This document shows positions 1,069 to 20,897 of a DNA stretch of 64,000 bases, piece by piece. Below the pieces are notes generated by a model, which was not told the origin of the DNA, searched no databases, and saw nothing but the letters and a program-made list of their open reading frames with translations. Position 1 is the first letter of the stretch. Every line of letters starts with the position of its first letter. The translations under genes were made by a program, and so were the position numbers. The stretch is from Actinomycetes bacterium. Its GTDB lineage: Bacteria; Actinomycetota; Acidimicrobiia; Acidimicrobiales; Bog-793. The DNA lies in the NCBI GenBank assembly GCA_021796535.1, contig JAKABW010000005.1, forward strand, positions 75,672 through 139,671. The letters run 5' to 3'.

Positions 1069-1141
1069 GGGGGTGTAACTCAGTTGGTAGAGTGCCACGT
1101 TCGCAACGTGGAAGTCGGCGGTTCGAGTCCGCTCACCTCCA
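1069..1141 (+). tRNA. tRNA-Ala, anticodon CGC
   Basis: Cloverleaf folded by hand. Acceptor stem is GGGGGTG/CACCTCC and includes the G3:U70 wobble that is the classical tRNA-Ala identity pair. D arm is ACTC-AGTTGGTA-GAGT. Anticodon arm is CCACG-TTCGCAA-CGTGG. Variable loop is AAGTC. T arm is GGCGG-TTCGAGT-CCGCT. Discriminator is A. CCA is not encoded. Confidence 0.9.
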
Positions 1142-1399
1142 CGTTTGCTGACCAGCCAAAGCCTGGTGCGTTCGCATGCCCTAAACCCGGAAATATAGGG
1201 TAGCCATACGTCAGAATATGATCTCGACGCGGTCGGCCAGCTCTTTGGAGCGCTGCTTCTTCTCGTAGCTGTTCCCTTCTCAATGGCGGTTAAGATCGCC
1301 AACCGCGTGGAAGTAGCAGCTAAGCGTGGCAACGGTCTCTCTTGGTTGCATCAGCCCTTGTCTTTTCGGCTTAGATGGGACGGGGCAACTTTGACCCCA

Positions 1400-2635
1400 T
1401 CATCTTCTCAAAGCTTCTGCGGGTTCTATTCCCGATGCTCTGATGGATGGATACAGACCGGCTAAAAGACCTATAGCAGCGCCCGTGAATGGAGCAACCG
1501 CAACTATATATGGATCTAATGCAACAGTCCAGTGTTTTGCCAGTGCAACCAGGATAACTACCAATACACCGCATGAAGAGCCCACGAGACCGGCAACAAG
1601 GCCCATAAGAGTAGACTCCAGCAGAAAGTGGGCTGCTATATGATACCTCCTTGCGCCGAGTGCTCTTCGTAAACCTATTTCACCTGTCCTCTCTAAAATA
1701 GCCACAAGGGTAGTGTTTGCTATCCCGACTGCCCCTATGATAATGGCTATAGCTGCCAGGATATAAAACAAAGTATTTAGATTTCCAACAACTTGATCTT
1801 TCAGAGCGTTTGGGTTCAATGCCGACATGGCACTAAAATAGGCGGGGTGAGTGGGGCTGAGTGCTACGGGAGCTTGCCTCGTAATAAGATCGGAAGCCCC
1901 GAGCTTGGTATGTATAAGCATTTGAGCCGGAAATTGACTGCTGGGTAGTCCGAATAAGTCAAGAGCCGTGGTTGTGGGGATCATCATTGCGATCTCCAAT
2001 TGAGGCAATCTTCGGTCATTAGATAATATGCCAACTACGCTAAAGGCTTTATCTCCTATAAATACGGCAGGAGCATTTTCGAGGTTATTGATGCCAAGTT
2101 CACTTGCAACAGGACTTGACAGGATAATAACGTTTTGGTGTGTTTTGATATCAAATGAACTAAAGCCTGTACCCTGTGAGATAACACCGCCTGAAGCCGG
2201 CAGGACCGAGGAGTCTATGGCATATAAGTTATATATCTGGCTATAGCCGACACCCGGAAAGGCCGTTGTGGGATCAATTTCTTGAATCTGCCACCAAATA
2301 CCTGATGTTATGACACCCGCCAGCCTGTCTATCGCTTTATCCGAATCAGGTGAAAAATTATAAGCACTTTTACTCTGTGAAGGTCCTATATCGGTGACAT
2401 TTACCTGTGTGGCATCTAAGACATTGAACTGTTTGCTTATCTGGGTAGAAGCCGTTTGGGAAATACCTATCAACACGACAAATGTTCCTATACCAAGAAA
2501 AGTACCTACCATAGTCATGATAGACCTGCCGGGCCTTTGCAGAATAGCGGCTATGGCTTCAAAGATAAGGTCAAAAAATGACAGATGAGAGGGATCCAAA
2601 TATCTCTTTTTCTTTTTAGACCTTATAAACAACAT
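1400..2635 (-). CDS. MacB/FtsX-type ABC transporter permease (module A)
   Basis: 411 aa. It has an N-terminal TM, a large extracytoplasmic domain and a C-terminal FtsX-type 3-TM bundle with ERTGEIGLRRALGARR. Only 3 nt separate it from the upstream ATPase gene. Confidence 0.85.
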   Translation of the reverse strand: MLFIRSKKKKRYLDPSHLSFFDLIFEAIAAILQRPGRSIMTMVGTFLGIGTFVVLIGISQTASTQISKQFNVLDATQVNVTDIGPSQSKSAYNFSPDSDKAIDRLAGVITSGIWWQIQEIDPTTAFPGVGYSQIYNLYAIDSSVLPASGGVISQGTGFSSFDIKTHQNVIILSSPVASELGINNLENAPAVFIGDKAFSVVGILSNDRRLPQLEIAMMIPTTTALDLFGLPSSQFPAQMLIHTKLGASDLITRQAPVALSPTHPAYFSAMSALNPNALKDQVVGNLNTLFYILAAIAIIIGAVGIANTTLVAILERTGEIGLRRALGARRYHIAAHFLLESTLMGLVAGLVGSSCGVLVVILVALAKHWTVALDPYIVAVAPFTGAAIGLLAGLYPSIRASGIEPAEALRR

Positions 2636-2638
2636 AGT

Positions 2639-3358
2639 TTATCCGAGTAATCTGCCATCTGAAAAAGACAAGGAACGTTTGGCTCTTGCTGCCACTTGGC
2701 TGCTGTGGGTAATAACCAGAAGCGTAAGACCGGATTGTGACAGTTCGTCTAGAATATCTAATATCATATCTGCGGTTACACTATCCAGGTTGCCCGTCGG
2801 TTCGTCACATAAAATAAGACTTGGTCTGTTGACTATAGCCCTTGCCATGGCCACTCTTTGACGCTCTCCACCTGACAACTCGCCTGGTAACGCATATGCC
2901 CTTTTGGCTAGACCTACTTTTTCTAGAGCTTCTATCGCATCCTTTTCTCTTTTAGCTCTGGGTGTCTTAATATAAAGTTGAGCAAGCATGACATTTTCTA
3001 GTGCGCTCTTATAAGAAAGAAGGTGAAAAGCCTGAAAAACAAATCCTATCTTCCTGGCCCTTAGGGCACTTCTTTCTTTTTCTTGTAGGTCTTTTGTGTC
3101 TATGTTATCTATATATATTGCCCCGGAACTAGGCCTGTCAAGCAGACCTACCAGATTCAGAAAAGTTGATTTGCCGGAGCCGGAAGGTCCGACAATAGCT
3201 ACATGTTCAGCTTTTCTTATATTTAGACTTACTTCATAAAGAGCTTGCAGAGGAGGAGGGCCTTTATAGACATATGAGACGTCTACCATCTTGACAACAG
3301 AATCTATCTCAATGTCTGCAATTGTATCTTCATCCCGCTTATTTTTGAAAAAAGACAT
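2639..3358 (-). CDS. ABC transporter ATP-binding protein, MacB/LolD-like (module A)
   Basis: Walker A is GPSGSGKST, the ABC signature is LSGGERQRVAMARA and Walker B is LILCDEPTGNLD. Confidence 0.92.
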   Translation of the reverse strand: MSFFKNKRDEDTIADIEIDSVVKMVDVSYVYKGPPPLQALYEVSLNIRKAEHVAIVGPSGSGKSTFLNLVGLLDRPSSGAIYIDNIDTKDLQEKERSALRARKIGFVFQAFHLLSYKSALENVMLAQLYIKTPRAKREKDAIEALEKVGLAKRAYALPGELSGGERQRVAMARAIVNRPSLILCDEPTGNLDSVTADMILDILDELSQSGLTLLVITHSSQVAARAKRSLSFSDGRLLG

Positions 3359-3371
3359 CTAAAGCCTATTC

Positions 3372-5168
3372 CTATTTGATGCCATCGACAACTTCATCTC
3401 CAACATGCAAGGCATTGGGTGTTGTGGGATTGACGGCAATATCTCCGTTTCCACTTATCCCTGTTGTAACTTCGACACGTTTTTCTTTACCGGATCGCAA
3501 GATATTTACATAGGTATTTCCGTTGGAAGTGGCAAAAATGGCAGCTATCGGAACCACCAGAACTGGCTTAGCCGTCTTTGCCGCCGTTATTGATATCTGT
3601 ACATTTTGGCTTACAAGTGATGTAGACACATGAGGTATCGGGGTGATGACTATAGGGTAATCAGCAGTGACTCCTATGCCAGAGTTGCCTGAGTTTTGAC
3701 CGGCACCTGAGTTTTGACCGGCTGGGCCGATAGATCCCGAATTGGAAGATCCCGAATTGCCCGAATTGGATGTGCTTAGATGACCTATTTTGGTTATGAT
3801 TCCTTGACCTTGATACCCAGTAATGCTCCCTGATATTATTACTTTTTGTCCCAGATGAATAGCTGATATGTCACTCGGAGTTATCTGTGCGTCTAGGACC
3901 GGATAGCCCGTTGAAAGTTTGATAAAAGGCAAGCCGGGCTTTGTGCCCAAAGATCCGGATCTGGAAATTATGCGAGCAGGTAAATTGGGTACAAAAACTA
4001 CTTCCGATTCTTCTACCTCAGGTCCAGTGACCTGTTCCAGGGCATCCAGATTGTCGGTTGTACTTTTTATAAGACTTTCGTAGTACGTGATTTCATTTTT
4101 ATATTCAGTCAGCGAGGATGACGGTGAACCTGTATTTATTGTTGCCGAAGGAGAAGATGCCACGCCGGAGTCAGTTAATCCGGAATTACCCGAAGAGCCG
4201 GAGTTATAGCTCACTACATAGTGATTTGCATAGCTTTTAGAATAATCCCTCTTATGTCCAGGCAGGCATTTCAGAGACACGAAGGGGCTTGTCACCTGAT
4301 CCCCTATTGATCCTGAAAGAGATACCACTTTTGCCCTTACACAAGATAAGAATATGGCCTCTGATTCTTCTACCTCAGGCCCGAAAGAAAGCTCAGCCGA
4401 AGAGAGACTTTGCTTATCATTTGCAACACTTTGCTGAGCAGCAGAGACCTCTGCCTGTAAAATATCTGTTCCGGTATTACCTGAGGTATTAGTAGTTGTG
4501 GTAGTCGAGATACCGGGCAGAGAAGTGGTAGTGGTAGTTGATTGATAAAGTTGATTTTTTAAGTTCAACAAATTGGATTCATCACTTTGCAGTGTTTGCT
4601 GATCCTGCTCTATTGCGGAAATACTGCCTGCAAATATAGGAGAAAACCCAATATGGTGATAATAGTCAGATACAGCTTTCTTGGTTCCGTTCCCAAACGT
4701 TCCGATCTGATCTTGTCCTATTGAATACCCAAGTGAGATAAGAGCTCTTTGTAACTCTGCTATATCCGGTCCTTGTTCTCCCGGCATAAGATTGCGATAA
4801 ATGGGTATTTTGCCTTGTAAGACAAACAGGGGATTGCCCGAGATACTGGCCAACACATTACCCGATCTAATAAAATTATGATTGTAGTTGTATACCTTTG
4901 TAATAACAGGTGAGGTTATACCCGACTGCTCAGACGGGTTGATATTCATAACATTTTGCTCTGTAAATGTTCCCCTAAATATTAAATTATTTACAAGTAC
5001 TTGTCTCCTTATGGGAGAAGTAATAAAACTTGGATTGGGTGGAGCAGTCTCTGCTGCAATAGCTGCCGGAGACTTTATCCTAGAAGATAGAACTATCCCT
5101 ACCACAGATACGATGACCAGCAGAACTACAGCTAATAAAAACATCTTTGTTCTTTTATTCATAGACAA
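3372..5168 (-). CDS. Membrane-anchored HlyD/MacA-like periplasmic adaptor with an inserted peptidoglycan-binding domain (module A)
   Basis: 598 aa with an N-terminal TM (LLAVVLLVIVSVVGIVL). It has a PG_binding_1-like motif, GPDIAELQRALISLGYSIGQDQIGTFGNGTKKAV. The C-terminal beta-barrel-like region (PVLVVPIAAIF...VGDEVV) is shared with the paralog at 9071..10339. It also has Thr- and Ser/Gly/Asn-rich low-complexity tracts. Confidence 0.7.
   Translation of the reverse strand: MSMNKRTKMFLLAVVLLVIVSVVGIVLSSRIKSPAAIAAETAPPNPSFITSPIRRQVLVNNLIFRGTFTEQNVMNINPSEQSGITSPVITKVYNYNHNFIRSGNVLASISGNPLFVLQGKIPIYRNLMPGEQGPDIAELQRALISLGYSIGQDQIGTFGNGTKKAVSDYYHHIGFSPIFAGSISAIEQDQQTLQSDESNLLNLKNQLYQSTTTTTSLPGISTTTTTNTSGNTGTDILQAEVSAAQQSVANDKQSLSSAELSFGPEVEESEAIFLSCVRAKVVSLSGSIGDQVTSPFVSLKCLPGHKRDYSKSYANHYVVSYNSGSSGNSGLTDSGVASSPSATINTGSPSSSLTEYKNEITYYESLIKSTTDNLDALEQVTGPEVEESEVVFVPNLPARIISRSGSLGTKPGLPFIKLSTGYPVLDAQITPSDISAIHLGQKVIISGSITGYQGQGIITKIGHLSTSNSGNSGSSNSGSIGPAGQNSGAGQNSGNSGIGVTADYPIVITPIPHVSTSLVSQNVQISITAAKTAKPVLVVPIAAIFATSNGNTYVNILRSGKEKRVEVTTGISGNGDIAVNPTTPNALHVGDEVVDGIK
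3915..4382 (-). repeat. Intragenic duplication inside the module A adaptor gene (copies at 4269..4382 and 3915..4025)
   Basis: GPEVEESEAIFLSCVRAKVVSLSGSIGDQVTSPFVSLK (aa 263-300) recurs as GPEVEESEVVFVPNLPARIISRSGSLGTKPGLPFIKL (aa 382-418). At DNA level, gattcttctacctcagg is present in both copies. Confidence 0.8.
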
Positions 5169-5255
5169 TACTTTACTTTTATCAGCATGAGATAAATAGA
5201 TACGTCTTTCATAAAACAGTTATTTGTCTCAAATAAATCTACATAAAAAATTATA

Positions 5256-6161
5256 TTAATACTTTGTCATTACACGTTTTGCAGCCGTAATAAGATAAGA
5301 GTCGATCTGCGCCATTTCTTGAAATTCTGTAGGATGCTTATTTATAATTTGTTTTTGATAATATGACTCCACCGCCAGCCAAGTATTCATCATGTTTACC
5401 TTGACTTTGCAGTTATAGTCTGTAATAGCTTCTGCAATTTGCGCCTTTTTGGGCGGATGTTTATCATTTTTAATAGCCGGCGGCGGAGTCTTTATGTCGT
5501 AGCCATGCGAAGCCATGCAGGAAGACCATTTCTTTATATCGCTCAGCATTATGGGATTATCTTGCGTTTCGCTGACAGAATTATTTATTTGATTACCAAT
5601 AAAAGTATCTGTTGCATTAAGCTCCTTACCTTGCTTTGCCGTAATAAAATTTGTTGCAGAAACATATTTCAGACAACTATTTTGCATTATATAATATGCC
5701 TGCCCATACTTTTTCGCATAGTTATTATTTAAATCCATCACGTATTTCATATTCCTGTTAGCAAGTGGCGTAGCTGGGGACACATATATCTCATACCCAT
5801 GCACTTCAGCTTCTTTTAGGTTGTAGACCCCAAAAATGTGAGCACTTATTCCCAAGTGTTGAGCATAAAAAGGGTCCTGCTCTAAAGCAAGCAGTGAGTT
5901 GATTGCAAAAGGGACGCCTTTCTTGGCCATGCAATTTTGATCTAATAAAGTTCCCGCATAAAATACCGTTGCCTCCGTATTTGCCGTCAAGACGTAAGAG
6001 GAAAAAGGTAAAACCGGCGCTGGACTATTGACGGGAGGTATATGAATACTGCCTGTGTCTAGAGGTTTTGTCGAAGACAAACCAGAACTGCACGAAGAAA
6101 GAAGGGAAAGAAGAGCAATACTTATAATGATAAGAAATAGTTTTTTACATTTAATTTTCAT
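5256..6161 (-). CDS. Lipoprotein with 4 conserved Cys, unknown function (module A)
   Basis: Signal peptide plus lipobox LLSSC (Cys24). Mature-chain cysteines are C77, C163, C215 and C251. It shares INNSV...W[ST][ST]C[MV]A and other Cys contexts with the lipoprotein at 8116..9069. Confidence 0.7.
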   Translation of the reverse strand: MKIKCKKLFLIIISIALLSLLSSCSSGLSSTKPLDTGSIHIPPVNSPAPVLPFSSYVLTANTEATVFYAGTLLDQNCMAKKGVPFAINSLLALEQDPFYAQHLGISAHIFGVYNLKEAEVHGYEIYVSPATPLANRNMKYVMDLNNNYAKKYGQAYYIMQNSCLKYVSATNFITAKQGKELNATDTFIGNQINNSVSETQDNPIMLSDIKKWSSCMASHGYDIKTPPPAIKNDKHPPKKAQIAEAITDYNCKVKVNMMNTWLAVESYYQKQIINKHPTEFQEMAQIDSYLITAAKRVMTKY

Positions 6162-6277
6162 ATTTATTTATATCAATCTTTATAAAATAACTTAACAAAT
6201 TTACAGATTAGGTACATTGATTTTTAACAAATGTACCTAATCTGTAATACTTACTTCAAAGGTATCTCTATATCTTA

Positions 6278-6727
6278 CTACTGCCAAATAGCATAGGCGG
6301 GATTACATCCAGTCAACGTTGGGTCTTTTACATAGATGCTGTTAGACCAGCCCTCAGGGTATTGTCCATAATATGCTGCCGGATCAACGTATGTACCATT
6401 TGGATTCACTCCATACATGTCATACCACGTATTATTAGGTTGCAATTGTCCGTTGCCTACAAAATATAGAGTCTCACCGTCTGCCCAATAGGCGACGCAT
6501 ACACGATTACTGCTTCCGGCTACGGCGGAAATCCAATCATTTTGAGATGGCCCGGAATGCATGAGGAGCTGATTTACCGAAGGATAACTCTCTTGTCCTA
6601 TTGGATATATTGTCCTTGCAGATGCTATAGGAATAGCTACAAACATAGCAGTCAAACTGATTGCAAATGCAACTATTAGTTTATGAATATCTTCATACTT
6701 CTCCTTTTTTATAGAAACATAAGGCAT
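6278..6727 (-). CDS. Small secreted Trp/Tyr-rich protein, unknown function
   Basis: 149 aa. It has a Sec-type signal (LIVAFAISLTAMFVAIPIASA|RT). The mature chain of about 110 aa has 2 Cys and many W/Y/N/G residues. It is the first gene of the minus-strand module, next to the AT-rich divergent region. Confidence 0.6.
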   Translation of the reverse strand: MPYVSIKKEKYEDIHKLIVAFAISLTAMFVAIPIASARTIYPIGQESYPSVNQLLMHSGPSQNDWISAVAGSSNRVCVAYWADGETLYFVGNGQLQPNNTWYDMYGVNPNGTYVDPAAYYGQYPEGWSNSIYVKDPTLTGCNPAYAIWQ

Positions 6728-6769
6728 ATAAACTTACTTATATAGCTTATGTTATACTTGACCGTGGTT

Positions 6770-6798
6770 ATCCTATATATATATACATACGTTGTCAA
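6770..6798 (-). promoter_or_regulatory. Candidate sigma70-like promoter for 6278..6727 and the genes downstream of it
   Basis: On the minus strand the sequence reads TTGACA (6798..6793), a 17-nt spacer, then TAGGAT (6775..6770). It lies about 40 nt upstream of the ATG at 6727. The context is AT-rich, so a chance match is possible. Confidence 0.3.
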
Positions 6799-8067
6799 GC
6801 AATATTTAGTTATTTTAAACTCAATTCCAAAATAAGAGCCATTTGCTCTGGTGAGACTAAATACGACATGCCTATACTCCCGGTAAATTTCATGGAAAGT
6901 TTCCCCTTCTAGGCATTTTCTTGGGTTGCGGTAGGTTTTCACAGCATCGCTTAGGTCGCTGGGATCAGCTCTGGGATCCTCACAATTCATTGCAAACTAC
7001 ATTAACCAAAATATGAGGATGACTAAATAATGGAGTAAGCAGCGCCGCGGAAAGAAAAGACGGCCAGCAGATCATTTGACAATCCGAGGTCACAGATGTG
7101 TCAGCTTAGCTTAAGCTTTAGTATTCAAACCTCAAGCTAAAGCTATACGAAACCAACTTTAGGTTACCCAGAAAAAGTAAGCATGGGTTATACTCGCTTG
7201 TCTCTTCCCGTAATACCGGGTCGCAGTCAATGGTACTTGTTTTTGACTTTTCTTACATCTGCTGGCGGTATTTTAGCAATTCAAATACCAGACATCCTTA
7301 CACCAAAGTATCCCTTAAGCGTAGTTCTCCTATACTTAGAAAAGCATATATCGAGAGAAGAGTACCTGCGCATTCCCTAAAAATGCACTGTAGGGAAATT
7401 AATTTAAGAGTCTTAAGACAGTTGACAACAAAAATTGATGAACTCTAGACTGTTGGCAATTAAAAAGATACGTTTTATACGATTGAACGAAAGGAGTATT
7501 TAAATTCGCACATAAATGTCCTGTTAATACGATCAGAAGAGCTTTACTTGTAGTTTCCTTGATATTGAGTATTAGCTTTTTCAACCTCACCGAAGACGGC
7601 ACAAAGGCAAATACTTCAACAACTTAGGAATACGTAACTATATCGATACCAAGCCAATATCCATAAGACAAGGACCGAATGGTGTGCGTACGAGTAACTA
7701 TCTAAATACAAGCGTGGCTTACCTGATTGTGGCTTTTTTATCAAAATCATGGTGTCTGGAAATATGATGCGAGAGATTTGGATTACTGTTGGCCATCCCT
7801 CTGCAATACCTGGACGGAAAACAGATTTGAATTATTGCAGGTAGCATCCTCTTGCTTTATACATAGTGTTAGCGCCGAAAGTCTCATCCAAATCAGACTG
7901 ACTGCGTATCATATGTATCCACCTTGCACTGCCAACAACTCATTGATTTCTATGAATATTTCATTAAAAGTCGCCAGTTTATTTACTGTCAGATAAATAA
8001 ACTCCAGACAGATATGTCTACCTTGTCAATCTATTTTGATAAAAAAATAAAACTTTGCTTACTGCTA

Positions 8068-8096
8068 TTGACATAAAAATTTTACAAGCTATAAAT
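8068..8096 (+). promoter_or_regulatory. Candidate sigma70-like promoter for the module B operon
   Basis: TTGACA (8068..8073), a 16-17 nt spacer, then TATAAAT (8090..8096). It overlaps the first ATG of the ORF (8095), which argues for the ATG at 8116 as the real start with a very short leader. Confidence 0.35.
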
Positions 8097-8115
8097 GAGG
8101 GGCGTGAAATATATC

Positions 8116-9069
8116 ATGAAAGTTAGGTTACTTAAAATAAAGTTATTGAAACAATTGATGGCTATCGCGATAGGGTCGGCTATTCTGGCTTCTTGCAGTA
8201 GCAATTCTTCTTCCCTGTCGCAACCCGGTTCCCGTCAAAGTAAAGATACCCTCAATAGCAAGTCCACCCATCGTCCCTCTACCAAAATACCTGCCATATC
8301 TGAAAGCAGTTTGGCATCTTCTTTGTTTGTCGCCACTTCAGCTGAATATAATAATCCTCACTTTCAGAACCAATGGAGTAGTTTTATTACTTCCATGGAA
8401 AACAAAATGGTGGCATCGTGTTTAGAGAATTACGGATTCACGACACAAGAAACAGCATTTATCGCAAATCTACAGCTCAAGGGAAACTCTACAGACAACG
8501 TAGACTATCCTGATGTGGCACGCCTTAGGCAAGGTGACCTTGGTCTCGGTGGCCCTGCAACAACTGCCCAGATCCCAAAATCAAATATCCCTGCAAACGA
8601 AGAAAAAGCATGGGGCGTGGATCTCAGAAAGTGTTTTAACGTAAAATTGCCCGGACTGAACGGGATAGTTGCTCAACTGGATCCGATAAGAGCGATTTGG
8701 AATAATGATCTAACGTCGGTATGGATAAATAACTCTGTCACAACTGCATTGCGCACGTGGACAACTTGTGTAGCAGGCAGTGGCATGGCAAATATGCCGT
8801 CCACCCAACTCGGATTACGTGACTTCTTTGGCAAAATAGACGATTTGATGATGACACATACCAATTTGACTTATAACTCACCTCAGATAGTGGGTTTAGT
8901 CAAGATATATGGTAAATGCATTGCGCCTGTGGCAACAGCAATGGATAACGTACGCTCGCATGACCGTCACATGCTGCTTGCACAATATGCAAGCCAATTA
9001 AACGTAATAGCTCAAGAGATGAGTAAAGAAATATCTATAGACACTGCTAAGTATGGACTAAACATATAA
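8116..9069 (+). CDS. Lipoprotein with 4 conserved Cys, paralog of 5256..6161 (module B)
   Basis: The ORF opens at 8095. I prefer the start at 8116 (MKVRLLKIKLLKQLMAIAIGSAILASC, lipobox LASC). Mature-chain cysteines sit in contexts that parallel the module A lipoprotein: VASCLENYGF, RKCFNV, INNSVTTALRTWTTCVAGSG and YGKCIAP. Confidence 0.7.
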   Translation: MKVRLLKIKLLKQLMAIAIGSAILASCSSNSSSLSQPGSRQSKDTLNSKSTHRPSTKIPAISESSLASSLFVATSAEYNNPHFQNQWSSFITSMENKMVASCLENYGFTTQETAFIANLQLKGNSTDNVDYPDVARLRQGDLGLGGPATTAQIPKSNIPANEEKAWGVDLRKCFNVKLPGLNGIVAQLDPIRAIWNNDLTSVWINNSVTTALRTWTTCVAGSGMANMPSTQLGLRDFFGKIDDLMMTHTNLTYNSPQIVGLVKIYGKCIAPVATAMDNVRSHDRHMLLAQYASQLNVIAQEMSKEISIDTAKYGLNI

Positions 9070-9070
9070 T

Positions 9071-10339
9071 ATGTCCTCTTCAAAAGATGCTTCCCCAAAA
9101 AGTATCAAATTCATCACAATAGGGGTGCTGACCTCGCTTGCGCTAGCTGCCGGAGCTTTTATGGCAGGCTCCCATATCAAGTCGCCGGCGCAAGCCGCCG
9201 CTACGGCCAAACCTCCCCCTCTCAGTAACATAACGGTTCCCATACAAAAAGAAGTCTTAAAATCTGAGATAACTTTCCGGGGAAATGTCGTTGAATCCAA
9301 TCCTATCCCAATCCCCATGCCCACCATTCCGGCAGGTGACTTGCCGGTGGTTACCGGTGATTACGTAAAGACCGGAAATAAGGTTAGCCTGGGCTCTGTT
9401 TTGCTGGCAATAGCTGATCAGCCTATTATTTTAATGCAAGGTAATATTCCTGCTTTTAGAACCATGCAGTATCAAGATCAGGGTCCGGATATAGCAGAAC
9501 TACAAAATAACCTGATAGAACTTGGTTTTTCTATAGGAAATGATAAGAGCGGCACCTACGGGACAGGCACGGCTAAAGCCGTCAAAGGACTGTTTGGTTC
9601 CCTTGGATTTCAGCCAAATATGTCTGACTTCACGATTCCAAATACATCCAAGTCATCTGGGAAAACCAAGAAATTAAACTCTGCTGCAAAGACTGCCGCG
9701 GGTAATATATCAAATGACTCCGGCCAATCTCCCACTTTGACACCTTTGGCCACAGTGCCGCTGGGGGAAATAGTCTTTTTACCGAACCTTCCTACCTATG
9801 TAATAAGTGATAAGACATCTTTGGGAAAAAATCTGGATGCCCTGCCTCAGGGAGGAAATACGGCTCTTATAACGCTCGGATCTAATAATTTATCCGTTAC
9901 GGGTCAAGTTAGCTCTCTGGATGCCCAGAGCCTTCGAGACGGAATGGCTGCTACTCTGATAGATAACGTCAGTAACAAAAAGTGGACAGCAAAAGTAACG
10001 AGGATCTCGCAGGCCACTTCACAAGGGAACTCCGGGATACCGGAGGTTAACGTCAGTCTGGCTACTTCCACAAACAATAAACTTCCTCAATCCGAATTGG
10101 GCAACAACTTACAGATTGTTCTGACAGCGGCTTCAACTTCACGTCCCGTATTTGTGGTACCGATAGCAGCCATATATGCACGACAAAATGGTTCCAGTTT
10201 TGTCACTGTCGTAAAACATAACCGCCTTATAAATATAAAAATCGATGTGGGCCTTGATGTGGCGGGAAACGTAGAAATAACCCCAATAGGCAATCATATA
10301 TCAGCGGGCGAAAAAGTTGTGACCGGTGCCGCTAGGTAG
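9071..10339 (+). CDS. HlyD/MacA-like adaptor with a peptidoglycan-binding domain (module B)
   Basis: 422 aa with an N-terminal TM. It carries GPDIAELQNNLIELGFSIGNDKSGTYGTGTAKAV (PG_binding_1-like). Its C-terminus, PVFVVPIAAIYARQNGSSFVTVV...AGEKVV, matches the module A adaptor. The start is 1 nt after the lipoprotein stop. Confidence 0.7.
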   Translation: MSSSKDASPKSIKFITIGVLTSLALAAGAFMAGSHIKSPAQAAATAKPPPLSNITVPIQKEVLKSEITFRGNVVESNPIPIPMPTIPAGDLPVVTGDYVKTGNKVSLGSVLLAIADQPIILMQGNIPAFRTMQYQDQGPDIAELQNNLIELGFSIGNDKSGTYGTGTAKAVKGLFGSLGFQPNMSDFTIPNTSKSSGKTKKLNSAAKTAAGNISNDSGQSPTLTPLATVPLGEIVFLPNLPTYVISDKTSLGKNLDALPQGGNTALITLGSNNLSVTGQVSSLDAQSLRDGMAATLIDNVSNKKWTAKVTRISQATSQGNSGIPEVNVSLATSTNNKLPQSELGNNLQIVLTAASTSRPVFVVPIAAIYARQNGSSFVTVVKHNRLINIKIDVGLDVAGNVEITPIGNHISAGEKVVTGAAR

Positions 10340-10362
10340 ACAGTGGTTTCAAGGAACAGAAA

Positions 10363-11034
10363 ATGCCTGACCAACTCGTAGTATTAGAAAATATAAGCCG
10401 CATCTACGAAGGCCCTAATCCTGTCAATGCTTTAGTGAACGTATCCGCATCCATACAACAAGGCGATTTTGTCTCCATACAAGGCGTCTCCGGTTCCGGA
10501 AAATCTACCCTTCTAAACGTCTTAGGATTACTGGACCGGCCTACGGCAGGAAAATACATACTAAATGGTTTAGATGCAATGCATATATCGGAAAGAGAAA
10601 GAACCGATTTGAGGTGCTACTACATTGGATTTGTCTTTCAATCATTTCATCTGCTGGCAACCCGCTCTGCAGTGGAAAATGTCGAATTGCCTTTATACTA
10701 TCGAGGTATCAACCGTAAGAAGCGTAAAGAATCGGCAAGCAAAGCTATTGAAAAAGTAAACCTTCTCCACAGATCCGCTTCCTTCCCGGCAACGCTATCG
10801 GGAGGAGAACGTCAACGTGTAGCCATTGCCAGGGCCTTGGTCGGTTCACCAAAATTGCTTTTATGTGATGAACCGACAGGAAGTCTGGATAAAAATAGCT
10901 CTGACAATATTTTAGAGCTATTGGAAGAACTAAACGAAACAGGCCTTACTGTCATTATTGTCACCCATGATTCCGCAGTTGCCAACCGTTCAAAACGTCA
11001 CTTATACGTTGTGGAAGGACAACTTCATGAATAG
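10363..11034 (+). CDS. ABC transporter ATP-binding protein, MacB/LolD-like (module B)
   Basis: Motifs present are GVSGSGKST, LSGGERQRVAIARAL and LLLCDEPTGSLD. By eye it is roughly half identical to 2639..3358. Confidence 0.92.
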   Translation: MPDQLVVLENISRIYEGPNPVNALVNVSASIQQGDFVSIQGVSGSGKSTLLNVLGLLDRPTAGKYILNGLDAMHISERERTDLRCYYIGFVFQSFHLLATRSAVENVELPLYYRGINRKKRKESASKAIEKVNLLHRSASFPATLSGGERQRVAIARALVGSPKLLLCDEPTGSLDKNSSDNILELLEELNETGLTVIIVTHDSAVANRSKRHLYVVEGQLHE

Positions 11035-12334
11035 AATCAAATACAAAGTGTCGAAAGGAACAGAACAAAGAAAAAGTCATCTGAGAATAAAAGATGCCAT
11101 ATATGATGCTTTTTTAGGATTCGCCAGAAACCCCACCCGCACCTTTCTGGCCGCACTTGGTACTATTATTGGGGTTGGAACTTTGGTATCCGTATCCGGA
11201 ATTGCCACTACCGCAAAACAACAAGTCACATCGCAGTTCAATTCCATACTTGCCACAGAGATTACCGTAAGTGATAATAGCGTGGGACATATACCATTTA
11301 GCGCCCAAGAACGTGTCATGCACATTAAAGGGGTGGCGCATGCCGGTATTTCATGGCAACTTATGGCAGATGTAAATGTTGCGAGAGATTTATCAGTAAG
11401 TGGACCGCAGCAATTCTCTACGACGCTGCCCATCTATGCTTCTACACCGGATGGGTTAACTCAAATGCAGGCTGATATCATTACGGGAAGGTTATTTGAC
11501 AAAGGCAACGAAAGGCGCTTCGATCGCGTGGCATTGATAGGATCTATTGCCGCCCGGCAATTGGGCATCACAAGTGTAGCCAACCGACCGGCAATTTTTA
11601 TAAACGGAACCCCTTTCACCATAATAGGCATTGTCACGGGATTATTTGGACAACCCTCGGCGCTATCGTCAATAATAATTCCCGCGTCAACGGGCTTGGA
11701 TCTTATAGGTTCGCCTTATGCCGGCAGTTACTTGGGTCATAAAATCAATGAAAAATTTATAACAGAAAAGTCAAATGCGGTACTCCAGAATTCTTCCGCC
11801 CAAGAACCGACCATGTACGTCACAACGGCTAAAGGTGCCGCAGGTGTGGTTGGTAAAGAAATTGCTTATGCAATTTATCCACAAAATGTAAACGCTTTGT
11901 CAGTCATTACGCCACCCGGTCCGGATTTACTCAGTAACGCCATCGAGGGGACAACTGCCACTCTATTAATACTCTTGGGGATCGTAGCCCTGGTAACCGG
12001 AGGAGTTGTGATTGCCAATACCAGTCTATTGTCTGTTTTGGGAAGGACAAGTGAAATAGGACTTCGGCGGGCACTCGGAGCGAGACGAAAGCACATTGCA
12101 GTCCTTACTTTGCTTGAAGCAGGATGCATTGGCGCCATAGGGGGTATGATCGGCGCGTCACTGGGAGTTTTGGCAACCGTAGGAGTGGCGGCCACACATA
12201 CATGGACACCCGTACTATCATATCAGATCATCGTTATGGCACCTTTTGTAGGTGCTATCGTAGGCATTTTGGCTGGCATATACCCATCAATACGGGCAAC
12301 GAGAATAGAACCTGTTTCTGCATTACAGCACTAA
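11027..12334 (+). CDS. MacB/FtsX-type ABC permease (module B)
   Basis: The ORF opens at 10958. I prefer the ATG at 11027 (MNRIKYKV...), which overlaps the ATPase stop by 8 nt. The FtsX motif is GRTSEIGLRRALGARRKHI. Confidence 0.85.
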   Translation: MNRIKYKVSKGTEQRKSHLRIKDAIYDAFLGFARNPTRTFLAALGTIIGVGTLVSVSGIATTAKQQVTSQFNSILATEITVSDNSVGHIPFSAQERVMHIKGVAHAGISWQLMADVNVARDLSVSGPQQFSTTLPIYASTPDGLTQMQADIITGRLFDKGNERRFDRVALIGSIAARQLGITSVANRPAIFINGTPFTIIGIVTGLFGQPSALSSIIIPASTGLDLIGSPYAGSYLGHKINEKFITEKSNAVLQNSSAQEPTMYVTTAKGAAGVVGKEIAYAIYPQNVNALSVITPPGPDLLSNAIEGTTATLLILLGIVALVTGGVVIANTSLLSVLGRTSEIGLRRALGARRKHIAVLTLLEAGCIGAIGGMIGASLGVLATVGVAATHTWTPVLSYQIIVMAPFVGAIVGILAGIYPSIRATRIEPVSALQH

Positions 12335-12639: not shown

Positions 12640-13389
12640 GTGAGCGGGAACTGTTCGACAACACCCCTTGTATATGCCAAAGGGCTGTGCAAGGAGTACG
12701 GCACCGGGGAAGGACTGATCCGAGCGGTTGACGAGGTCAACTTGGAGATCGCTTCCGGCGAAGCGCTGGCCGTCATGGGACCGAGCGGGTGCGGCAAGTC
12801 GACGTTGCTCCACCTCATGGGTGGCCTTGACAGACCGAGTGCCGGTGAACTGTGGGTGGCCGGCAAACGCATTGATAGGCTCTCAGAACGCGGACTTGCC
12901 CAACTTCGCCGTCACGACGTCGGCTTTGTCTTCCAGGCCTTTCACCTCATGGACGAGCTGACCGCCCAAGAAAACGTTGAGCTGCCGGCTTTACTCGCCG
13001 GGCGCTCGTCAAGAGAAGCCAAGAGCCGTGCCCGTCAACTTCTCCACCAAGTCGGACTCGCTGAGCGGGCTGGACACCTCCCCTCAGCCCTCTCGGGCGG
13101 CCAACGCCAACGCGTCGCCGTCGCCAGGGCGCTCGTCAACGAGCCAAAACTTTTGCTGGCCGACGAGCCGACTGGAAACCTTGACAGCGTCGCCACCTTG
13201 GAAGTGCTCCGCCTCTTCGAGACGCTTCATAGCTCCGGTCTCACGCTCGTGATGGTCACCCACGACGAGCGGGTCGCGGCGACCGCCGACCGGTTGCTGA
13301 CGATGCGCGATGGTGCCTTCCTCGAGGAGACACTCCTTGTGAGCGATGCAAAGGGCAACCTTGGCGATTTCACAGGCCTCGGAGACTGA
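12640..13389 (+). CDS. ABC transporter ATP-binding protein (third set, GC-rich)
   Basis: GTG start preceded by GGAGAAAAAA. Motifs present are GPSGCGKST, LSGGQRQRVAVARAL and LLLADEPTGNLD. Confidence 0.92.
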   Translation: MSGNCSTTPLVYAKGLCKEYGTGEGLIRAVDEVNLEIASGEALAVMGPSGCGKSTLLHLMGGLDRPSAGELWVAGKRIDRLSERGLAQLRRHDVGFVFQAFHLMDELTAQENVELPALLAGRSSREAKSRARQLLHQVGLAERAGHLPSALSGGQRQRVAVARALVNEPKLLLADEPTGNLDSVATLEVLRLFETLHSSGLTLVMVTHDERVAATADRLLTMRDGAFLEETLLVSDAKGNLGDFTGLGD

Positions 13390-13391
13390 CT

Positions 13392-15203
13392 ATGGGGAAG
13401 ATCTTGCTCCTCTGGCGGCTTGCCGTGAAGGACCTCCGCCACAACGCCTTCGAAGCCGGGCTTCTCATGCTCGCCGTTGCGGCGGCAGCGACGACATTGA
13501 TGCTCGGACTTTCGCTCCATGGAGTGGCGAGCGCCCCATACACACGTACCCGGGTGGCAACCAACGGGCCCGACATAGTGGCATCCGTCTTTCCCGGAGG
13601 CCCCAATCCCCTTGGGCCAAACCAGATTGGCGAGCTCCAGTCTCTCGAACATGCAAAGGGCGTTGTCGCATTGAGCGGACCGTTCCCCGTTACCTGGACG
13701 GTGCTCCGGGGAACCACTGCCACCGGAGCCGAGATTGAAGGTCGCAGTACTGCTTCCACTGTCGTCGATCAGCCAAAGCTGACCGCAGGACACTGGATCC
13801 GCGCCGGGGGTGTCGTCGTTGAAGCCGGGTTCGCATCGGCATTCGGCCTACGAGTCGGCAACCGGATCTATTTGGCGGGGATTCCGTTTCACGTGGTTGG
13901 TACGGCGGTGACGGCCGCCTTCCCAAGTTACGGAAGGCTTTGCTACCTTGGCTGTGAAGAAACGCACGCATTCTATGGCCAACCCGGTCTCGTCTGGACA
14001 ACAAAAGCCGATGCCTACCGTATCGCGCTCACTGCAAGAGCACCTGTTGCGTACTTCTTGAACTTGAAACTCGCCCAGCCGACAGATGCCACCACATTTG
14101 CCGCCCGCTTCGACGCCTCAACCGCAAACGCTCTGGAGGCTCCCTACCTCGTCTCGTGGCAAGACATCGCCAACGAGGACGCTAAAGCGACTGCAAATGT
14201 GCAGCTCGTTCTGTTTACCGGCAGCGTACTGCTCATGCTGCTTGCGTTGGCAAGCGTCGCCGTCTTGGTCGGCGGCCGTATGGCAGAGCAGTCTCGACGA
14301 GTGGGACTCGTAAAGGCCGTCGGCGGTTCCCCGGGATTTGTCGCAGCGGTACTGGTGTTGGAACACATGCTGGTCGGTATTGGCGCCGCGGCAGTCGGAC
14401 TGCTACTGGGCCGGTTGGCGGCTCCCACCCTCGACGGGCCGGGGGCCGGGATGCTCGGCGCAGCAGGGACACCCGCCTTCGACTTGGCAAACGTCGGCCT
14501 CGTGATGGCACTGGCCGTCGTCGTAGTGGTTGTGGCGACCTTCGTCCCGACCGTACGTGCGGCAAAAACGAGCACGGTTCGGTTGCTCGACGATGCGGCT
14601 CGGACGCCAAAGCGGCGGCCGGCGGTAGCCAAGCTTTCTGCATATCTTCCCGCTTCGCTGCTCGTGGGGGTGCGACTGGCAGTCCGACGGCCACGCCGGC
14701 TCCTTCTCAACGTGTTCAGTGTAGCCGTCACGGCGAGCGGAATCATGGCGGTGCTCATATTCCACGCTACAAATGCGCAGGACTCCCTCTCTCAAAACAA
14801 CCTATATACACTTCGGGTCGACCAAGTAACGACCCTCCTATCGGTGATGCTCGTCGTTCTCGCCGCCGTCAATACATTATTCATCGCCTGGGCGACCATC
14901 CTCGACACCAGGCATGCCTCGGCGCTCGCCCGCGCACTTGGGGCGACCTCCAAACAGGTAACGATCGGGGTTTCCGTATCCCAGATCCTTCCGAGCCTCT
15001 TGGGAGCGCTGCTTGGCATTCCCGGAGGACTCGGCATCTATGACGCAGCGAAGAGCGGGGGCTCGACGGCGATCCCTACGGACGGATGGATCGCCGGCAT
15101 GATCGTCGGCACTGTCCTCGTCGTGGCTGTGCTGACAGCGATACCGGCTCGCATTGGCGGCCGTCGCCCGGTGACAGAGCTTCTTCAAACTGAGGTGGCG
15201 TGA
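13392..15203 (+). CDS. ABC permease with two FtsX-type domains and a large N-proximal extracytoplasmic domain
   Basis: 603 aa. The first FtsX-like segment is RVGLVKAVGGSPGFV and the second is ARALGATSKQV. The start is 2 nt after the ATPase stop. Confidence 0.8.
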   Translation: MGKILLLWRLAVKDLRHNAFEAGLLMLAVAAAATTLMLGLSLHGVASAPYTRTRVATNGPDIVASVFPGGPNPLGPNQIGELQSLEHAKGVVALSGPFPVTWTVLRGTTATGAEIEGRSTASTVVDQPKLTAGHWIRAGGVVVEAGFASAFGLRVGNRIYLAGIPFHVVGTAVTAAFPSYGRLCYLGCEETHAFYGQPGLVWTTKADAYRIALTARAPVAYFLNLKLAQPTDATTFAARFDASTANALEAPYLVSWQDIANEDAKATANVQLVLFTGSVLLMLLALASVAVLVGGRMAEQSRRVGLVKAVGGSPGFVAAVLVLEHMLVGIGAAAVGLLLGRLAAPTLDGPGAGMLGAAGTPAFDLANVGLVMALAVVVVVVATFVPTVRAAKTSTVRLLDDAARTPKRRPAVAKLSAYLPASLLVGVRLAVRRPRRLLLNVFSVAVTASGIMAVLIFHATNAQDSLSQNNLYTLRVDQVTTLLSVMLVVLAAVNTLFIAWATILDTRHASALARALGATSKQVTIGVSVSQILPSLLGALLGIPGGLGIYDAAKSGGSTAIPTDGWIAGMIVGTVLVVAVLTAIPARIGGRRPVTELLQTEVA

Positions 15204-15923: not shown

Positions 15924-16580
15924 ATGAAAATAATAAATAGCGATGCAGTAAAGACAGAAGAAAAGGATACAGCTTCTTATTACATGAAGTTTGTCGTAAC
16001 AGCAGCAGCTGTCGGTACCGCAGCGGGATTACTTGGCACCGCAGGGTCGGCATGGGCGGCAGGTACCGGTTACGGACCGCCTGTCGTGATTACCAAAGGT
16101 GTTGCACAAGGATTTGGCGGCATCATGACAGCCGTAACGATAAACAGATCGGGAAAAGTCATACATCTCAAAAATGCTCACGGCGCAAACATCACCCTTC
16201 ACATAGGCGGGTGCCGCAACAACTTCCAGGCTATAGTGACCGATGCGTCGATCAAGGCAATAGACAAATCACACTATAAAAGCATCCCGAAGTCTGCCCT
16301 TCACGATCATGTTCTTTACTCGATCGGCGTACTTTTCCAAAGCGGCACGCGCGAAATCTCATCTTGTAAGATTGACCGATTGGATATCTACGGCAAGACG
16401 TTTACCAAAAAAGACTACGTCCTTTATTACAACTCACACTTCAGAGCTTTTAGCTCTGCTCCGAAATACCATGCGTCCGTATCCCAAAGCCACGTGATCG
16501 CCAAATTCAGAACAGACACAGAAATAGTGGTATTGGGGCCAAACACACCACAGCCACATACACAAAAGAAGGGAAAATAA
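15924..16580 (+). CDS. Exported hypothetical protein
   Basis: Strong SD (AGAGAGGAAGG) before the ATG. A hydrophobic Ala/Gly-rich signal-like segment (VVTAAAVGTAAGLLGTAGSAWAAG) follows a 20-aa charged N-region. I recognised no family motif. Confidence 0.5.
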   Translation: MKIINSDAVKTEEKDTASYYMKFVVTAAAVGTAAGLLGTAGSAWAAGTGYGPPVVITKGVAQGFGGIMTAVTINRSGKVIHLKNAHGANITLHIGGCRNNFQAIVTDASIKAIDKSHYKSIPKSALHDHVLYSIGVLFQSGTREISSCKIDRLDIYGKTFTKKDYVLYYNSHFRAFSSAPKYHASVSQSHVIAKFRTDTEIVVLGPNTPQPHTQKKGK

Positions 16581-16907
16581 ATTGAATCTTGATCAAATAT
16601 ATTGTCTGCCACACAAAATGTGATTTAGCTGTTTGTCTTTGATACAGAGGTAATTAACATAACTTTACGATAGCTCATAGTATTAATACTTTTCATAAAA
16701 TATGCATACTTTTGTAGTATTAAGTTAGTTGGCATATAAAGTTAAAAGTATTGGTAACATGGTTTTGCTTTAAATTCTTTTCTAACTCTCCCAATTTACC
16801 TTATATACAATAGTTTTTTTGACATATAAATGTCAATGTAACTTTATTTTAAAACATTGATAAAGGATAAATAATTAAAACTAAATCTTTGATAAAAGGC
16901 GAACATC

Positions 16908-19079: not shown

Positions 19080-19103
19080 ACTTATACCAGTTCACCCGGA
19101 TTG

Positions 19104-19133
19104 AGTGTGTATTTGATAAGTCAAATACACACT
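19104..19133 (+). terminator. 13-bp perfect hairpin (AGTGTGTATTTGA-TAAG-TCAAATACACACT) 25 nt after the 16908..19079 stop
   Basis: Read directly. It is followed by an A-run rather than a T-run, so it is not a canonical intrinsic terminator on the plus strand. Confidence 0.3.
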
Positions 19134-19424
19134 GCTGAAAAAAATACAAATAACCCCAAACGACAAGGAGAGGCCTTCTCGCTCTACAGATTGAGACTGC
19201 TCACGCGGTGGTGGCTTCTTTTAATGTGCTTATCAGTTGCCGTATACTTTCCGACGGCTTAGGAGATGTTTTGTCCGGCTTACTTTAGATTTTGTCGCCG
19301 TGCTGAGCTTTGCCGCCTATTTATCTATATCCTTTATTGTAAACGACAGTTAAATTGCCTTATTAATATCAATGCTGCGGCATCGGATACCTCGGCAAAA
19401 GACCGCTCACCAAAGGAGAACCTC

Positions 19425-20393
19425 ATGAAAGCAGTTCTTTACCGATATACCGGCCTTTCTTCGGTCCTCTCATTTGAACAGACAGAGACGCCGAAACCGG
19501 GCCCGGGAGAAGTGAGGGTGAAAATTGCCTGTTCTGGCGTGAACCCCACCGATTGGAAAATCCGTTCCGGGCTGACCGGGAATCAACCCGACGGCTTTCA
19601 AATCCCCCACCAAGACGGAAGCGGCGTTATAGATGCCGTAGGTGACGGCGTAACGGAACGGGAAATAGGCCAGAGGGTCTGGCTGTATACAGCGGCGTAT
19701 GCCAACCCCTACGGTACGGCGGCAGAGTATTGTGTCCTGCCAGCCGAACGCACGGTCGTCTTGCCGGACAGCGCTTCATACGAACTCGGGGCTTCTCTCG
19801 GAGTTCCCGCGTTGACCGCCGCACACTGTTTGGGCGGCAACCCGTCCGCATTGCGCGGTGCCAACGTTTTGGTTGCCGGAGGCGCCGGTGCGGTGGGATA
19901 TTATGCCATCGAATTGGCCAAGCACGCCGGAGCAAGGGTTGCCACCACCGTCAGTTCCGCAGAGAAAGAGCGACTGGCTAAAACGGCGGGAGCCGATTTA
20001 GCCGTCAATTACAAAGCACCGGGAGCTTTGGAAAAACTGAAAAGTTTTGCCCCGCAGATGGATTACATCACAGAAGTGGCTTTCGGGGCAAACATGGAAA
20101 CTGACCTGGCCCTCTCCGCTCCCGGCACCGTAATAGCCATATACGCCAACGAACCGACTGACCCGATCCTGCCCATACGAAAGCTTATGCGAACAAACGC
20201 AACAATTCGTTTTGTCATGCTCTACACCATCACAAAACACGACTTGAACCAAGCAATAGCATGGATTGAGGATGCCTTAGAACAAGATGCTTTATCGGAA
20301 CTGCCGATACATCGTTTTTCATTGGAAAAAACTGCCGAAGCTCAGGATTTTGTCCAACAAGGTGCCGTGGGGAAAGTGCTCGTTATACCCTAA
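19425..20393 (+). CDS. NADPH:quinone oxidoreductase / zinc-type alcohol dehydrogenase superfamily (MDR) protein
   Basis: The ORF opens at 19266. I prefer the ATG at 19425, which follows AAAGGAGAA. The sequence MKAVLYRYTG...PGPGEVRVKIACSGVNPTDWKIRSG and the Rossmann motif VLVAGGAGAVGYYAIELAK are typical of zeta-crystallin-like quinone reductases. Confidence 0.8.
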   Translation: MKAVLYRYTGLSSVLSFEQTETPKPGPGEVRVKIACSGVNPTDWKIRSGLTGNQPDGFQIPHQDGSGVIDAVGDGVTEREIGQRVWLYTAAYANPYGTAAEYCVLPAERTVVLPDSASYELGASLGVPALTAAHCLGGNPSALRGANVLVAGGAGAVGYYAIELAKHAGARVATTVSSAEKERLAKTAGADLAVNYKAPGALEKLKSFAPQMDYITEVAFGANMETDLALSAPGTVIAIYANEPTDPILPIRKLMRTNATIRFVMLYTITKHDLNQAIAWIEDALEQDALSELPIHRFSLEKTAEAQDFVQQGAVGKVLVIP

Positions 20394-20897
20394 GTGTTTT
20401 TGGCCGACAGGAAAACATGGCCGTGCCCTGTAGTGTACTGTATATTTTGGAGTATTGTCCGTTGACTAAATTGACAAAGATGCCTCCTCTGTCCTATTTA
20501 CCGATGCGTAGGCCTTGCCAAAAGCGTTTTCCGTGACATTTTTAAAATAAATTACGCGCTAGAAAACAAGTCTGATAAATATTTTTTGTCGGCAAACGAT
20601 TACAAAAGCGCTATTTCTCACCCATCCCCAAGCAGACGACTGGCAGGACATCCCGGCTTTTGCTGTGAGTTATACGACCGCATGTCACAGAGGTTTTTAG
20701 CCACAAAACTTTTTTTATGTTATATCAAATATGGTATAAGGTAGTTTATATAAGCAAAAGTTACCCCAGAGACTTCTGCGGGTAAGGATTTCCGGGGTTT
20801 TATCGATACTCCGAAGTGCTTCGATACCAGACATTGTATCCTGTGACACCCGTTATATAAGATTTCATACGCATCACAAAAATGAAAGAGGTTCGAG

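Follow-up and report, generated by a model that had tools for sequence, protein, structure and literature searches.

Two divergent lipoprotein-adaptor-ATPase-permease modules of an uncultured actinobacterium as candidate wall-anchored MacAB-like envelope machines

We analysed a stretch of 64,000 nucleotides (nt), hereafter called the window, from an uncultured bacterium of the Acidimicrobiales (assembly GCA_021796535.1, contig JAKABW010000005.1, positions 75,672 to 139,671), in which two four-gene modules face away from each other: module A on the minus strand (6161 to 1400) and module B on the plus strand (8116 to 12334). The listing of open reading frames (ORFs) and the domain searches confirmed what an earlier note, made from the letters of the DNA alone, had described, namely that both modules encode in the same order a lipoprotein, an adaptor with a peptidoglycan (PG)-binding domain, an ATP-binding cassette (ABC) ATPase and a permease (Table 1). 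We consider it fairly probable that, in this actinobacterium with its single membrane, each module specifies a four-part, wall-anchored envelope machine of the MacAB-like (type VII ABC) kind, in which the lipoprotein is a partner. This reading is supported by the homology of the transporter parts to MacB, by the wall-binding domain of the adaptor and by the near-invariant synteny of the four genes.

Table 1. Genes and other features of the two modules and of the edge of the inserted region (positions in the window).
Feature	Position	Strand	Characteristics and evidence
Permease A	1400..2635	-	Four-helix FtsX domain and MacB periplasmic core domain; Pfam, 33% identity to permease B
ATPase A	2639..3358	-	MacB/LolD/FtsE-type nucleotide-binding subunit; ABC_tran, 50% identity to ATPase B
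Adaptor A	3372..5168	-	TTG start, alternative ATG at 5162; PG_binding_1
Lipoprotein A (lipoA)	5256..6161	-	Lipobox LLSSC and four conserved Cys
Small secreted protein, 149 amino acids	6278..6727	-	ORF directly upstream of lipoA
Pseudogene of small secreted protein	7490..7894	+	Upstream of lipoB; tblastn
Lipoprotein B (lipoB)	8116..9069	+	Lipobox ILASC and four further Cys; very divergent relative of lipoA
Adaptor B, short form	9071..10339	+	PG_binding_1, then low-complexity linker
ATPase B	10363..11034	+	ABC_tran
Permease B	11027..12334	+	MacB_PCD and FtsX; Pfam
tRNA-Ala(CGC)	1069..1142	+	ARAGORN and Rfam; edge of inserted region

The genes of each module lie close together. From lipoprotein to adaptor, ATPase and permease, the intergenic gaps are 87-93, 13 and 3 nt in module A, and 1 nt, 23 nt and an overlap of 8 nt in module B, where the start of the permease gene follows the gene call in another assembly (locus L006). 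The gaps or overlaps of 1-13 nt announced in the earlier note thus apply to most junctions, but not to those between lipoA and adaptor A or between adaptor B and ATPase B. The proposed start of lipoB was upheld, its orthologues beginning at an equivalent position. Likewise, the spacer between the modules (6728-8115) has the 1.4 kb and the AT-richness attributed to it (1,388 nt, 37.5% GC), but it is not empty, as it contains the pseudogene of a small secreted protein. Rfam searches over the spacer and both modules gave no match besides the tRNA, and scans for promoters and terminators yielded signals no better than those of shuffled sequence. The small secreted-protein gene and lipoA are separated by a stretch that includes a 47-nt inverted repeat (6201-6247) with 85% complementarity, which could form a hairpin separating or attenuating the transcripts of the two genes.

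The energising and membrane-embedded parts matched curated domain models, as anticipated from the letters alone. Both ATPases contain the Pfam domain ABC_tran (112 bits in A, 100.6 bits in B), and both permeases contain FtsX (62.9 and 52.6 bits for A and B) and MacB_PCD (43.1 and 55.5 bits), all above cut-offs. MacB_PCD is placed between the first two helices and FtsX at the C-terminal end, which is the arrangement of MacB/type VII permeases. The nearest solved chain to ATPase B is Spr0694 (5xu1_A, E 4e-61), and the top matches of the ATPases in the PDB (Spr0694, MacB, MJ0796, LolD and FtsE) identify them as nucleotide-binding subunits. Permease B aligned over its full length with MacB (5gko, E 3e-19) and also matched Spr0695 (5xu1_M). 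The top NCBIfam matches of ATPase A were LolD, FtsE and MacB, all under cut-offs, LolD being the best for both ATPases. On these NCBIfam models three narrower identities were rejected: LolCDE (permeases at 19-34 bits versus cut-offs of 362-540 for LolC/E; ATPases at 219-220 versus 307.75 for LolD), FtsEX (19-29 versus 225-255 bits for FtsX models; 199-205 versus 264.85 for FtsE) and the lactococcin-972-type ABC transporter (TIGR03608; 192 and 204.4 bits for the two ATPases versus 254.85).

The adaptors carry one of the two features that set these modules apart. PG_binding_1 (PF01471) was detected in adaptor A (27.9 bits, residues 132-169) and adaptor B (25.1 bits) above the Pfam gathering threshold of 23, so that this assignment of the earlier note stands. 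Adaptor A is predicted to begin with an N-terminal membrane helix, followed by half a lipoyl domain, PG_binding_1, coiled-coil and S/T/G/N-rich linkers and, on the C-terminal side, an additional copy of the second half of the lipoyl domain, a beta-barrel and a membrane-proximal region. This architecture was deduced from sequence, both structure predictions having been devoted to the lipoprotein. A profile built from 20 members of the adaptor family had Spr0693 (5xu0, E 2.4e-8) as its nearest solved structure. In this profile the PG-binding domain (positions ~136-217) comes after the N-terminal lipoyl half and matches its counterparts in PDB entries for SleB, endolysins and an L,D-transpeptidase; beyond it, the profile aligns to the hairpin, the C-terminal lipoyl half and the beta-barrel of Spr0693. 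The domain thus appears to lie, as claimed, at the hairpin site, between the N-terminal lipoyl half and the region aligned with the hairpin. The hairpin itself appears reduced to a low-complexity linker of ~45 residues in adaptor B, and coiled-coil-like sequence is kept after the PG domain in long relatives and, as short segments, in adaptor A. Among the 20 family members, 19 contain PG_binding_1 and four HlyD_3. As assembled in the window, adaptor A lacks exactly one repeat unit of 429 nt, corresponding to half a lipoyl domain plus a PG-binding domain; both a further assembly of the source organism (L006:11018-13219) and a relative (L001) possess this unit, and their adaptors have two PG-binding motifs. 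Its absence reflects either real recombination between the 88%-identical repeats or an assembly collapse.

The first gene of each module encodes a member of a large family without a name. LipoA has its lipobox cysteine at position 24 and conserved cysteines at positions 77, 163, 215 and 251; the lipobox cysteine is invariant in the family alignments, a sequence pattern that qualifies these proteins as predicted lipoproteins. Word-indexed searches retrieved just 7 and 4 close relatives, all from uncultured relatives of the source organism. A HMMER scan with an A-type profile reached at least 1,931 representatives (clusters at 50% identity, nearly all of ~300 residues) at E <= 1e-3, and 611 at E <= 1e-10; all the family names that we sampled read 'hypothetical protein'. 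A lipobox was found in 128 of 146 full-length representatives, and 120 of those 128 carry four further cysteines and no more. The family shares the motifs C-M-x-x-x-G-[FY], which occurs twice, G-G-C, W-S-x-C-M and D-V-x-C-K, and a repeat of ~40 residues is common to both halves of the protein (hhalign 83%, E 9e-6). With an alignment of 62 sequences, AlphaFold predicted an all-alpha structure for lipoA with good confidence (mean predicted local distance difference test 85.9, predicted template modelling score 0.79); this run replaced a first model made with 11 sequences (local score of 60), which gave meaningless fold matches.

This predicted structure had no neighbour in the PDB according to Foldseek (best E 0.57, template modelling score < 0.2), and a sequence profile search of the PDB returned signal-peptide-level matches only (E > 0.3). 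Pfam and NCBIfam had no match for lipoA, lipoB or five or more distant members of the family. As far as these sequences and the predicted model can tell, the lipoprotein is outside the known substrate-binding and enzyme families, a membership that would have spoken against the earlier proposal and was not encountered in domain models, PDB sequences or PDB folds. Our literature searches found no paper on the lipoprotein family and nothing specific to the four-gene cassette, in keeping with the note's remark that it knew of no described role.

The two modules are related to each other to very different degrees along their length. The ATPases are 50% identical (E 6e-75), exactly the 'roughly half' judged by eye before, and the permeases 33% (E 3e-71); the adaptors share 40% identity over the N-terminal 173 amino acids (aa) and 26% over the C-terminal part. 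For the lipoproteins, BLASTP aligned just 28 aa (E 0.02) and hhalign between small-family profiles, made of a few close relatives each, gave a probability of 58%; we discarded both as proof of homology because they were too weak, a broad alignment being needed. Compared with the 62-sequence family alignment (A7), the lipoB family gave an hhalign value of 93.9% (E 1.6e-7), the 196 aligned columns taking in the lipobox and the first three further cysteines, whereas a hidden Markov model (HMM) built without B-type sequences reached lipoB at E 4e-4 only. Each of the two proteins has a lipobox cysteine and exactly four further ones. Judged by the identities of the three transporter parts and the profile-level match of the lipoproteins, modules A and B are old paralogs, as had been stated, with the lipoproteins as by far the most diverged pair.

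The association of the lipoprotein with the pump genes proved to be very strong when viewed from the adaptor. A scan led by the adaptor, with one genome per species, yielded 48 loci, 46 of them actinobacterial and spread over Streptomyces, Nonomuraea, Streptosporangium, Actinoplanes, Actinomadura, Nocardioides, Arachnia, Acidimicrobiia and many uncultured lineages. All 46 have the order adaptor-ATPase-permease, save a few in which the contig ends inside the operon. After one iteration of the profile, a lipoprotein homologue was present in 46 out of 46, and in 48 out of 49 when three further loci were added. In these 48 its gene is on the same strand and directly beside the operon, upstream of the adaptor gene in 36 and downstream of the permease gene in 12. 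Away from the operons, the lipoprotein family HMM (E <= 1) had no match in ~7,000 ORFs, save neighbouring paralogs in two loci; these are three extra tandem copies around the operon of L040, and a 306-aa paralog in a related genome that is convergent to the end of module A (L001:15659-16579, minus strand). A histidine kinase and an OmpR-type regulator are encoded beside the operon in a subset of loci (L015:5270-7697 on the minus strand, L022, L029, L030 and others; not in the window). Their clusters cover roughly 14-24 of the 46 loci, a range contaminated by overlapping alternative-frame ORFs in high-GC loci, where this two-component signal was the only usable one of our all-versus-all neighbour clustering. 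Such adjacent regulatory genes fit stress-induced expression.

MacAB-like pumps of Gram-positive bacteria are already known. By sequence similarity the closest solved system is Spr0693-0695, and all three transporter parts of the modules find their nearest solved relatives in the Spr0693-0695/MacB group. This MacAB-like pump of Streptococcus pneumoniae (PDB 5XU0, 5XU1), whose knockout lowers the minimum inhibitory concentration of LL-37 four-fold (PMC5768738), combines, as is predicted for the modules, a separate ATPase, a four-helix MacB-type permease with an extracytoplasmic domain and a single-pass membrane-fusion adaptor in a one-membrane bacterium, and it provided the best PDB matches for the ATPase and the adaptor profile and a further one for the permease. 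However, Spr0693 lacks PG_binding_1 and its alpha-hairpin barrel is complete, and spr0693-spr0694-spr0695 is a three-gene operon with no lipoprotein gene described as part of it (PMC5768738), whereas the operons studied here start or, in some relatives, end with one.

Other relatives share particular traits. Compared by description, YknWXYZ of Bacillus is also made of four components, a MacB-type ABC transporter, an adaptor and an extra envelope protein; it protects against the secreted peptide toxin SDP and purified YknX is reported to bind peptidoglycan (PMC5985334). YknX nevertheless has a MacA-like fold with no separate PG-binding domain mentioned, and the extra partner YknW figures in the same review (PMC5985334) as a membrane protein that is co-transcribed, not as a lipoprotein. 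The permease aligns end to end with that of MacAB-TolC and the C-terminus of the adaptor weakly matches MacA, so mechanotransmission may be presumed by analogy; however, the modules have no outer membrane or TolC to serve, their ATPase is unfused and the TolC-docking hairpin is replaced or preceded by the wall-binding domain. Finally, YbbAP-TesA of Escherichia coli also pairs type VII ABC components with an extracytoplasmic protein dedicated to them (PMC12646458), but that protein hydrolyses lipids and the system lacks an adaptor, while the lipoprotein has no recognisable enzyme fold.

By homology, a cytoplasmic dimer of the ATPase is predicted to power a MacB/FtsX permease that has four helices and a large core domain outside the cytoplasm, in company with a single-pass membrane-fusion-type adaptor bearing PG_binding_1 where Gram-negative adaptors have the TolC-docking hairpin. 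The mechanism and the substrate may be sketched by analogy with the published relatives (PMC5768738, PMC5985334, PMC12646458). The adaptor would form a ring on the permease, with its distal end fastened to peptidoglycan by the PG domain at the tip of the ring, and this anchored ring would bridge the gap from membrane to wall as a stationary channel. Mechanotransmission powered by ATP would then drive a substrate off the membrane's outer face and into the wall or all the way through it; the likeliest substrates are peptides active on membrane or wall and small secreted proteins. The lipoprotein, predicted to be all-alpha and probably stabilised by two disulfides, would be tethered to the outer leaflet via a flexible linker of ~40 residues and act there as an obligatory partner, be it as receptor, gate or assembly factor, rather than as cargo. 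The tight coupling of lipoB and adaptor B, whose genes lie 1 nt apart, supports the four-part composition.

Several observations weigh against this four-part machine. The first concerns the adaptors: the Pfam HlyD models had no direct match to either window adaptor, and NCBIfam adaptor models were reached only under cut-offs. Of the earlier label 'HlyD-like', no direct assignment was obtained for the window pair, but a weaker kinship was, through TIGR01730 (RND_mfp) for adaptor B (E 6e-9, 35.3 bits versus 94.9), weak matches to MacA and DarC at the C-terminus of adaptor A (E 2e-4 to 2e-3) and the Spr0693-matching profile. The membrane-fusion type of these adaptors thus appears supported at the level of family profiles but not by curated thresholds. 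In addition, the ring is an assumption, as is a tip position for the PG domain, and the pairing of the cysteines is presumed. The linkage also has its limits. The search pattern of the adaptor-side scan lay inside the PG-binding domain, so that the 48 out of 49 holds for PG-binding adaptors only. From the lipoprotein side, two Streptomyces-type representatives looked up directly sit without ABC genes, and 4-5 of ~16 informative loci in a metagenome scan were ABC-linked; together, ~12 of 16-17 informative loci have no adjacent adaptor or ABC gene. The lipoprotein family also exists without ABC genes and, therefore, its core activity does not need the pump. The co-occurrence with PG-adaptor/MacB operons suggested in the earlier note is thus very close when one starts from the adaptor, but the word 'always' does not apply in the other direction: the linkage is one-directional. 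In favour of the machine, the nearest neighbour of an ABC-linked lipoprotein is also ABC-linked in 50 of 57 cases, and that of an unlinked one is unlinked or of unknown context in 11 of 12, which suggests that the unlinked proteins form a mostly separate, sister clade.

The main rival explanation, in our opinion unlikely, is that the modules ensure the export of the small secreted protein encoded upstream and/or self-immunity against it, the lipoprotein capturing or neutralising this protein on the membrane surface and the wall-anchored MacB machine pushing it out across the wall. The AS-48EFGH and lactococcin-972 ABC systems are parallels for such a role, and the ATPases do score on the lactococcin-972-type model, although under its cut-off. 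This explanation is suggested by the recurrence of the small gene and the lipoprotein gene as a pair. In the source lineage one precedes each lipoprotein gene: intact upstream of lipoA, where the 149-aa product has a signal peptide, two cysteines and a richness in tyrosine, tryptophan and glycine; decayed upstream of lipoB, where the pseudogene has 32% identity over 139 aa (tblastn, E 5.6e-11) to a 158-aa gene of a relative and contains four in-frame stops; and intact in that relative (L010), whose lipoB orthologue lies downstream of this gene for a secreted protein rich in the same three residues. Unlinked lipoprotein genes are also usually preceded, on the same strand and within 250 nt, by a small secreted-protein gene. 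Two of the proteins in that small-protein family have a Pfam Inhibitor_I36 match, which for one of the two exceeds the cut-off. Such an I36-like gene lies upstream of orphan lipoproteins in at least 13 of ~20 loci, as a two-gene cassette without ABC genes (L062:5538-6942, L063:4213-5743, L068-L090), and upstream of ABC-linked lipoproteins in L014, L016 and L059.

The same explanation is weakened because the small gene is absent from most loci and one of the window copies has decayed. Those three loci are the only ones of 49 on the adaptor side with a detectable I36-like gene, and the copy upstream of lipoB was lost while module B remained intact. The 149-aa protein has a partial homologue at the same position in L001/L002, but the L001 copy looks truncated. 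Moreover, no homology was detectable among the three small-protein types, be it between the lineage's own or with the I36-like family, and the 149-aa protein had no match in Pfam, NCBIfam or the PDB. A bolder, and even less probable, version would make the lipoprotein a new-fold surface receptor for small secreted proteins (Inhibitor_I36/beta-gamma-crystallin-like in Streptomyces, rich in tyrosine, tryptophan and glycine here). Together with the PG-anchored MacB machine it would constitute an actinobacterial system overlooked so far, which passes small proteins in folded form across the wall or shields their producer from them.

A function in signalling instead of transport seems improbable to us. 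In that case, ATP-driven movements of the permease core would pass via the PG-bound adaptor and then the lipoprotein to an enzyme of the cell wall and regulate it. The non-transporting FtsEX-EnvC, FtsEX-PcsB and FtsEX-RipC also belong to type VII ABC (PMC7668044, PMC10694151). The predicted wall binding of the adaptor through PG_binding_1, typical of wall hydrolases, would agree with this, and one orphan lipoprotein cassette (L062) adjoins a class A penicillin-binding protein gene, with a FemAB gene also beside the orphan. However, no hydrolase domain occurs in the four proteins or is conserved beside them, FtsEX systems are not known to have a membrane-fusion-type adaptor and the scores of the permeases on FtsX models remain an order of magnitude below their cut-offs.

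Two further explanations have, in our view, very little chance of being correct. One is a Lol-like extraction in which the co-encoded lipoprotein is the cargo pulled from the membrane. It can invoke LolD as best NCBIfam match of both ATPases and the lipoprotein encoded with the operon in nearly all adaptor loci, but LolD itself scored under cut-off and LolC/E far lower, Lol systems are not known to use an adaptor and handle a broad set of lipoproteins instead of one encoded in their operon, the single-membrane host group offers no obvious destination for the cargo, and related lipoproteins exist without any ABC genes. The other, that the lipoprotein is an unrelated envelope protein whose adjacency is meaningless, finds some footing in the many family members that sit elsewhere but is already very unlikely on synteny, since the same-strand adjacency extends from Streptomyces to Acidimicrobiia and was kept through the change in gene order (upstream or downstream) and in both old paralogs of the window.

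The modules have a GC content of 42.4%, versus 52.9% for the remaining window, and lie within ~21 kb of mixed GC (1400-22400) that splits an aro operon, with aroC (22808-23983, minus strand) on one flank and the tRNA-Ala and aroK/aroB (919 to 1, minus strand) on the other. This stretch looks like a tRNA-associated genomic island. Around it, the gene order aroC / aroK-aroB / aroQ / pepQ / efp / nusB presumably fits Actinobacteria. In a related genome, module A lies elsewhere, between tRNA-Ser genes, and module B is on a different contig; a third genome (L003:10001-12317, L004) has an intact lipoA orthologue followed by a truncated adaptor gene and no ATPase or permease genes, that is, a decayed module. 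Because of these different sites in one relative and the decay in another, the modules are accessory and mobile in the source lineage, and the adjacency of A and B seen in the window is not conserved.

The island holds other genes. Directly downstream of module B, a third ABC ATPase and a 603-aa FtsX/MacB_PCD permease (12640-15203, plus strand), without adaptor or lipoprotein, have 62% GC between flanks of ~37-46%, and look like a separate acquisition. Further on (15924-22361) are encoded a 218-aa secreted protein and a 723-aa protein with a weak macroglobulin-domain match, as well as a Peptidase_A4 (acid protease) protein (20898-22361). One of the related genomes, L001 (GCA_023475605.1), is publicly labelled 'Firmicutes bacterium'. 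The closest genome from the scan led by adaptor B (L011, 80% identical) is labelled Actinomycetes, the aro gene order of the related window is actinobacterial and the adaptor family is otherwise actinobacterial; hence, the 'Firmicutes' label is probably wrong.

The literature search returned no description of an adaptor with an inserted PG_binding_1 or of an obligatory, phylum-wide lipoprotein with an unmatched fold. What adaptors do where there is no outer membrane is still debated (PMC5985334), and an adaptor with a bona fide wall-binding domain suggests a testable answer, its anchoring to peptidoglycan. The conserved fourth member belongs to a large unnamed lipoprotein family (~1,900 clusters at 50% identity), whose fold, predicted with confidence, appears unlike any solved one. 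The presence of the cassette in culturable Streptomyces, Nonomuraea, Actinoplanes, Actinomadura and Leucobacter makes genetics and biochemistry feasible. Their study could reveal a route of peptide resistance or protein release in antibiotic-producing bacteria.

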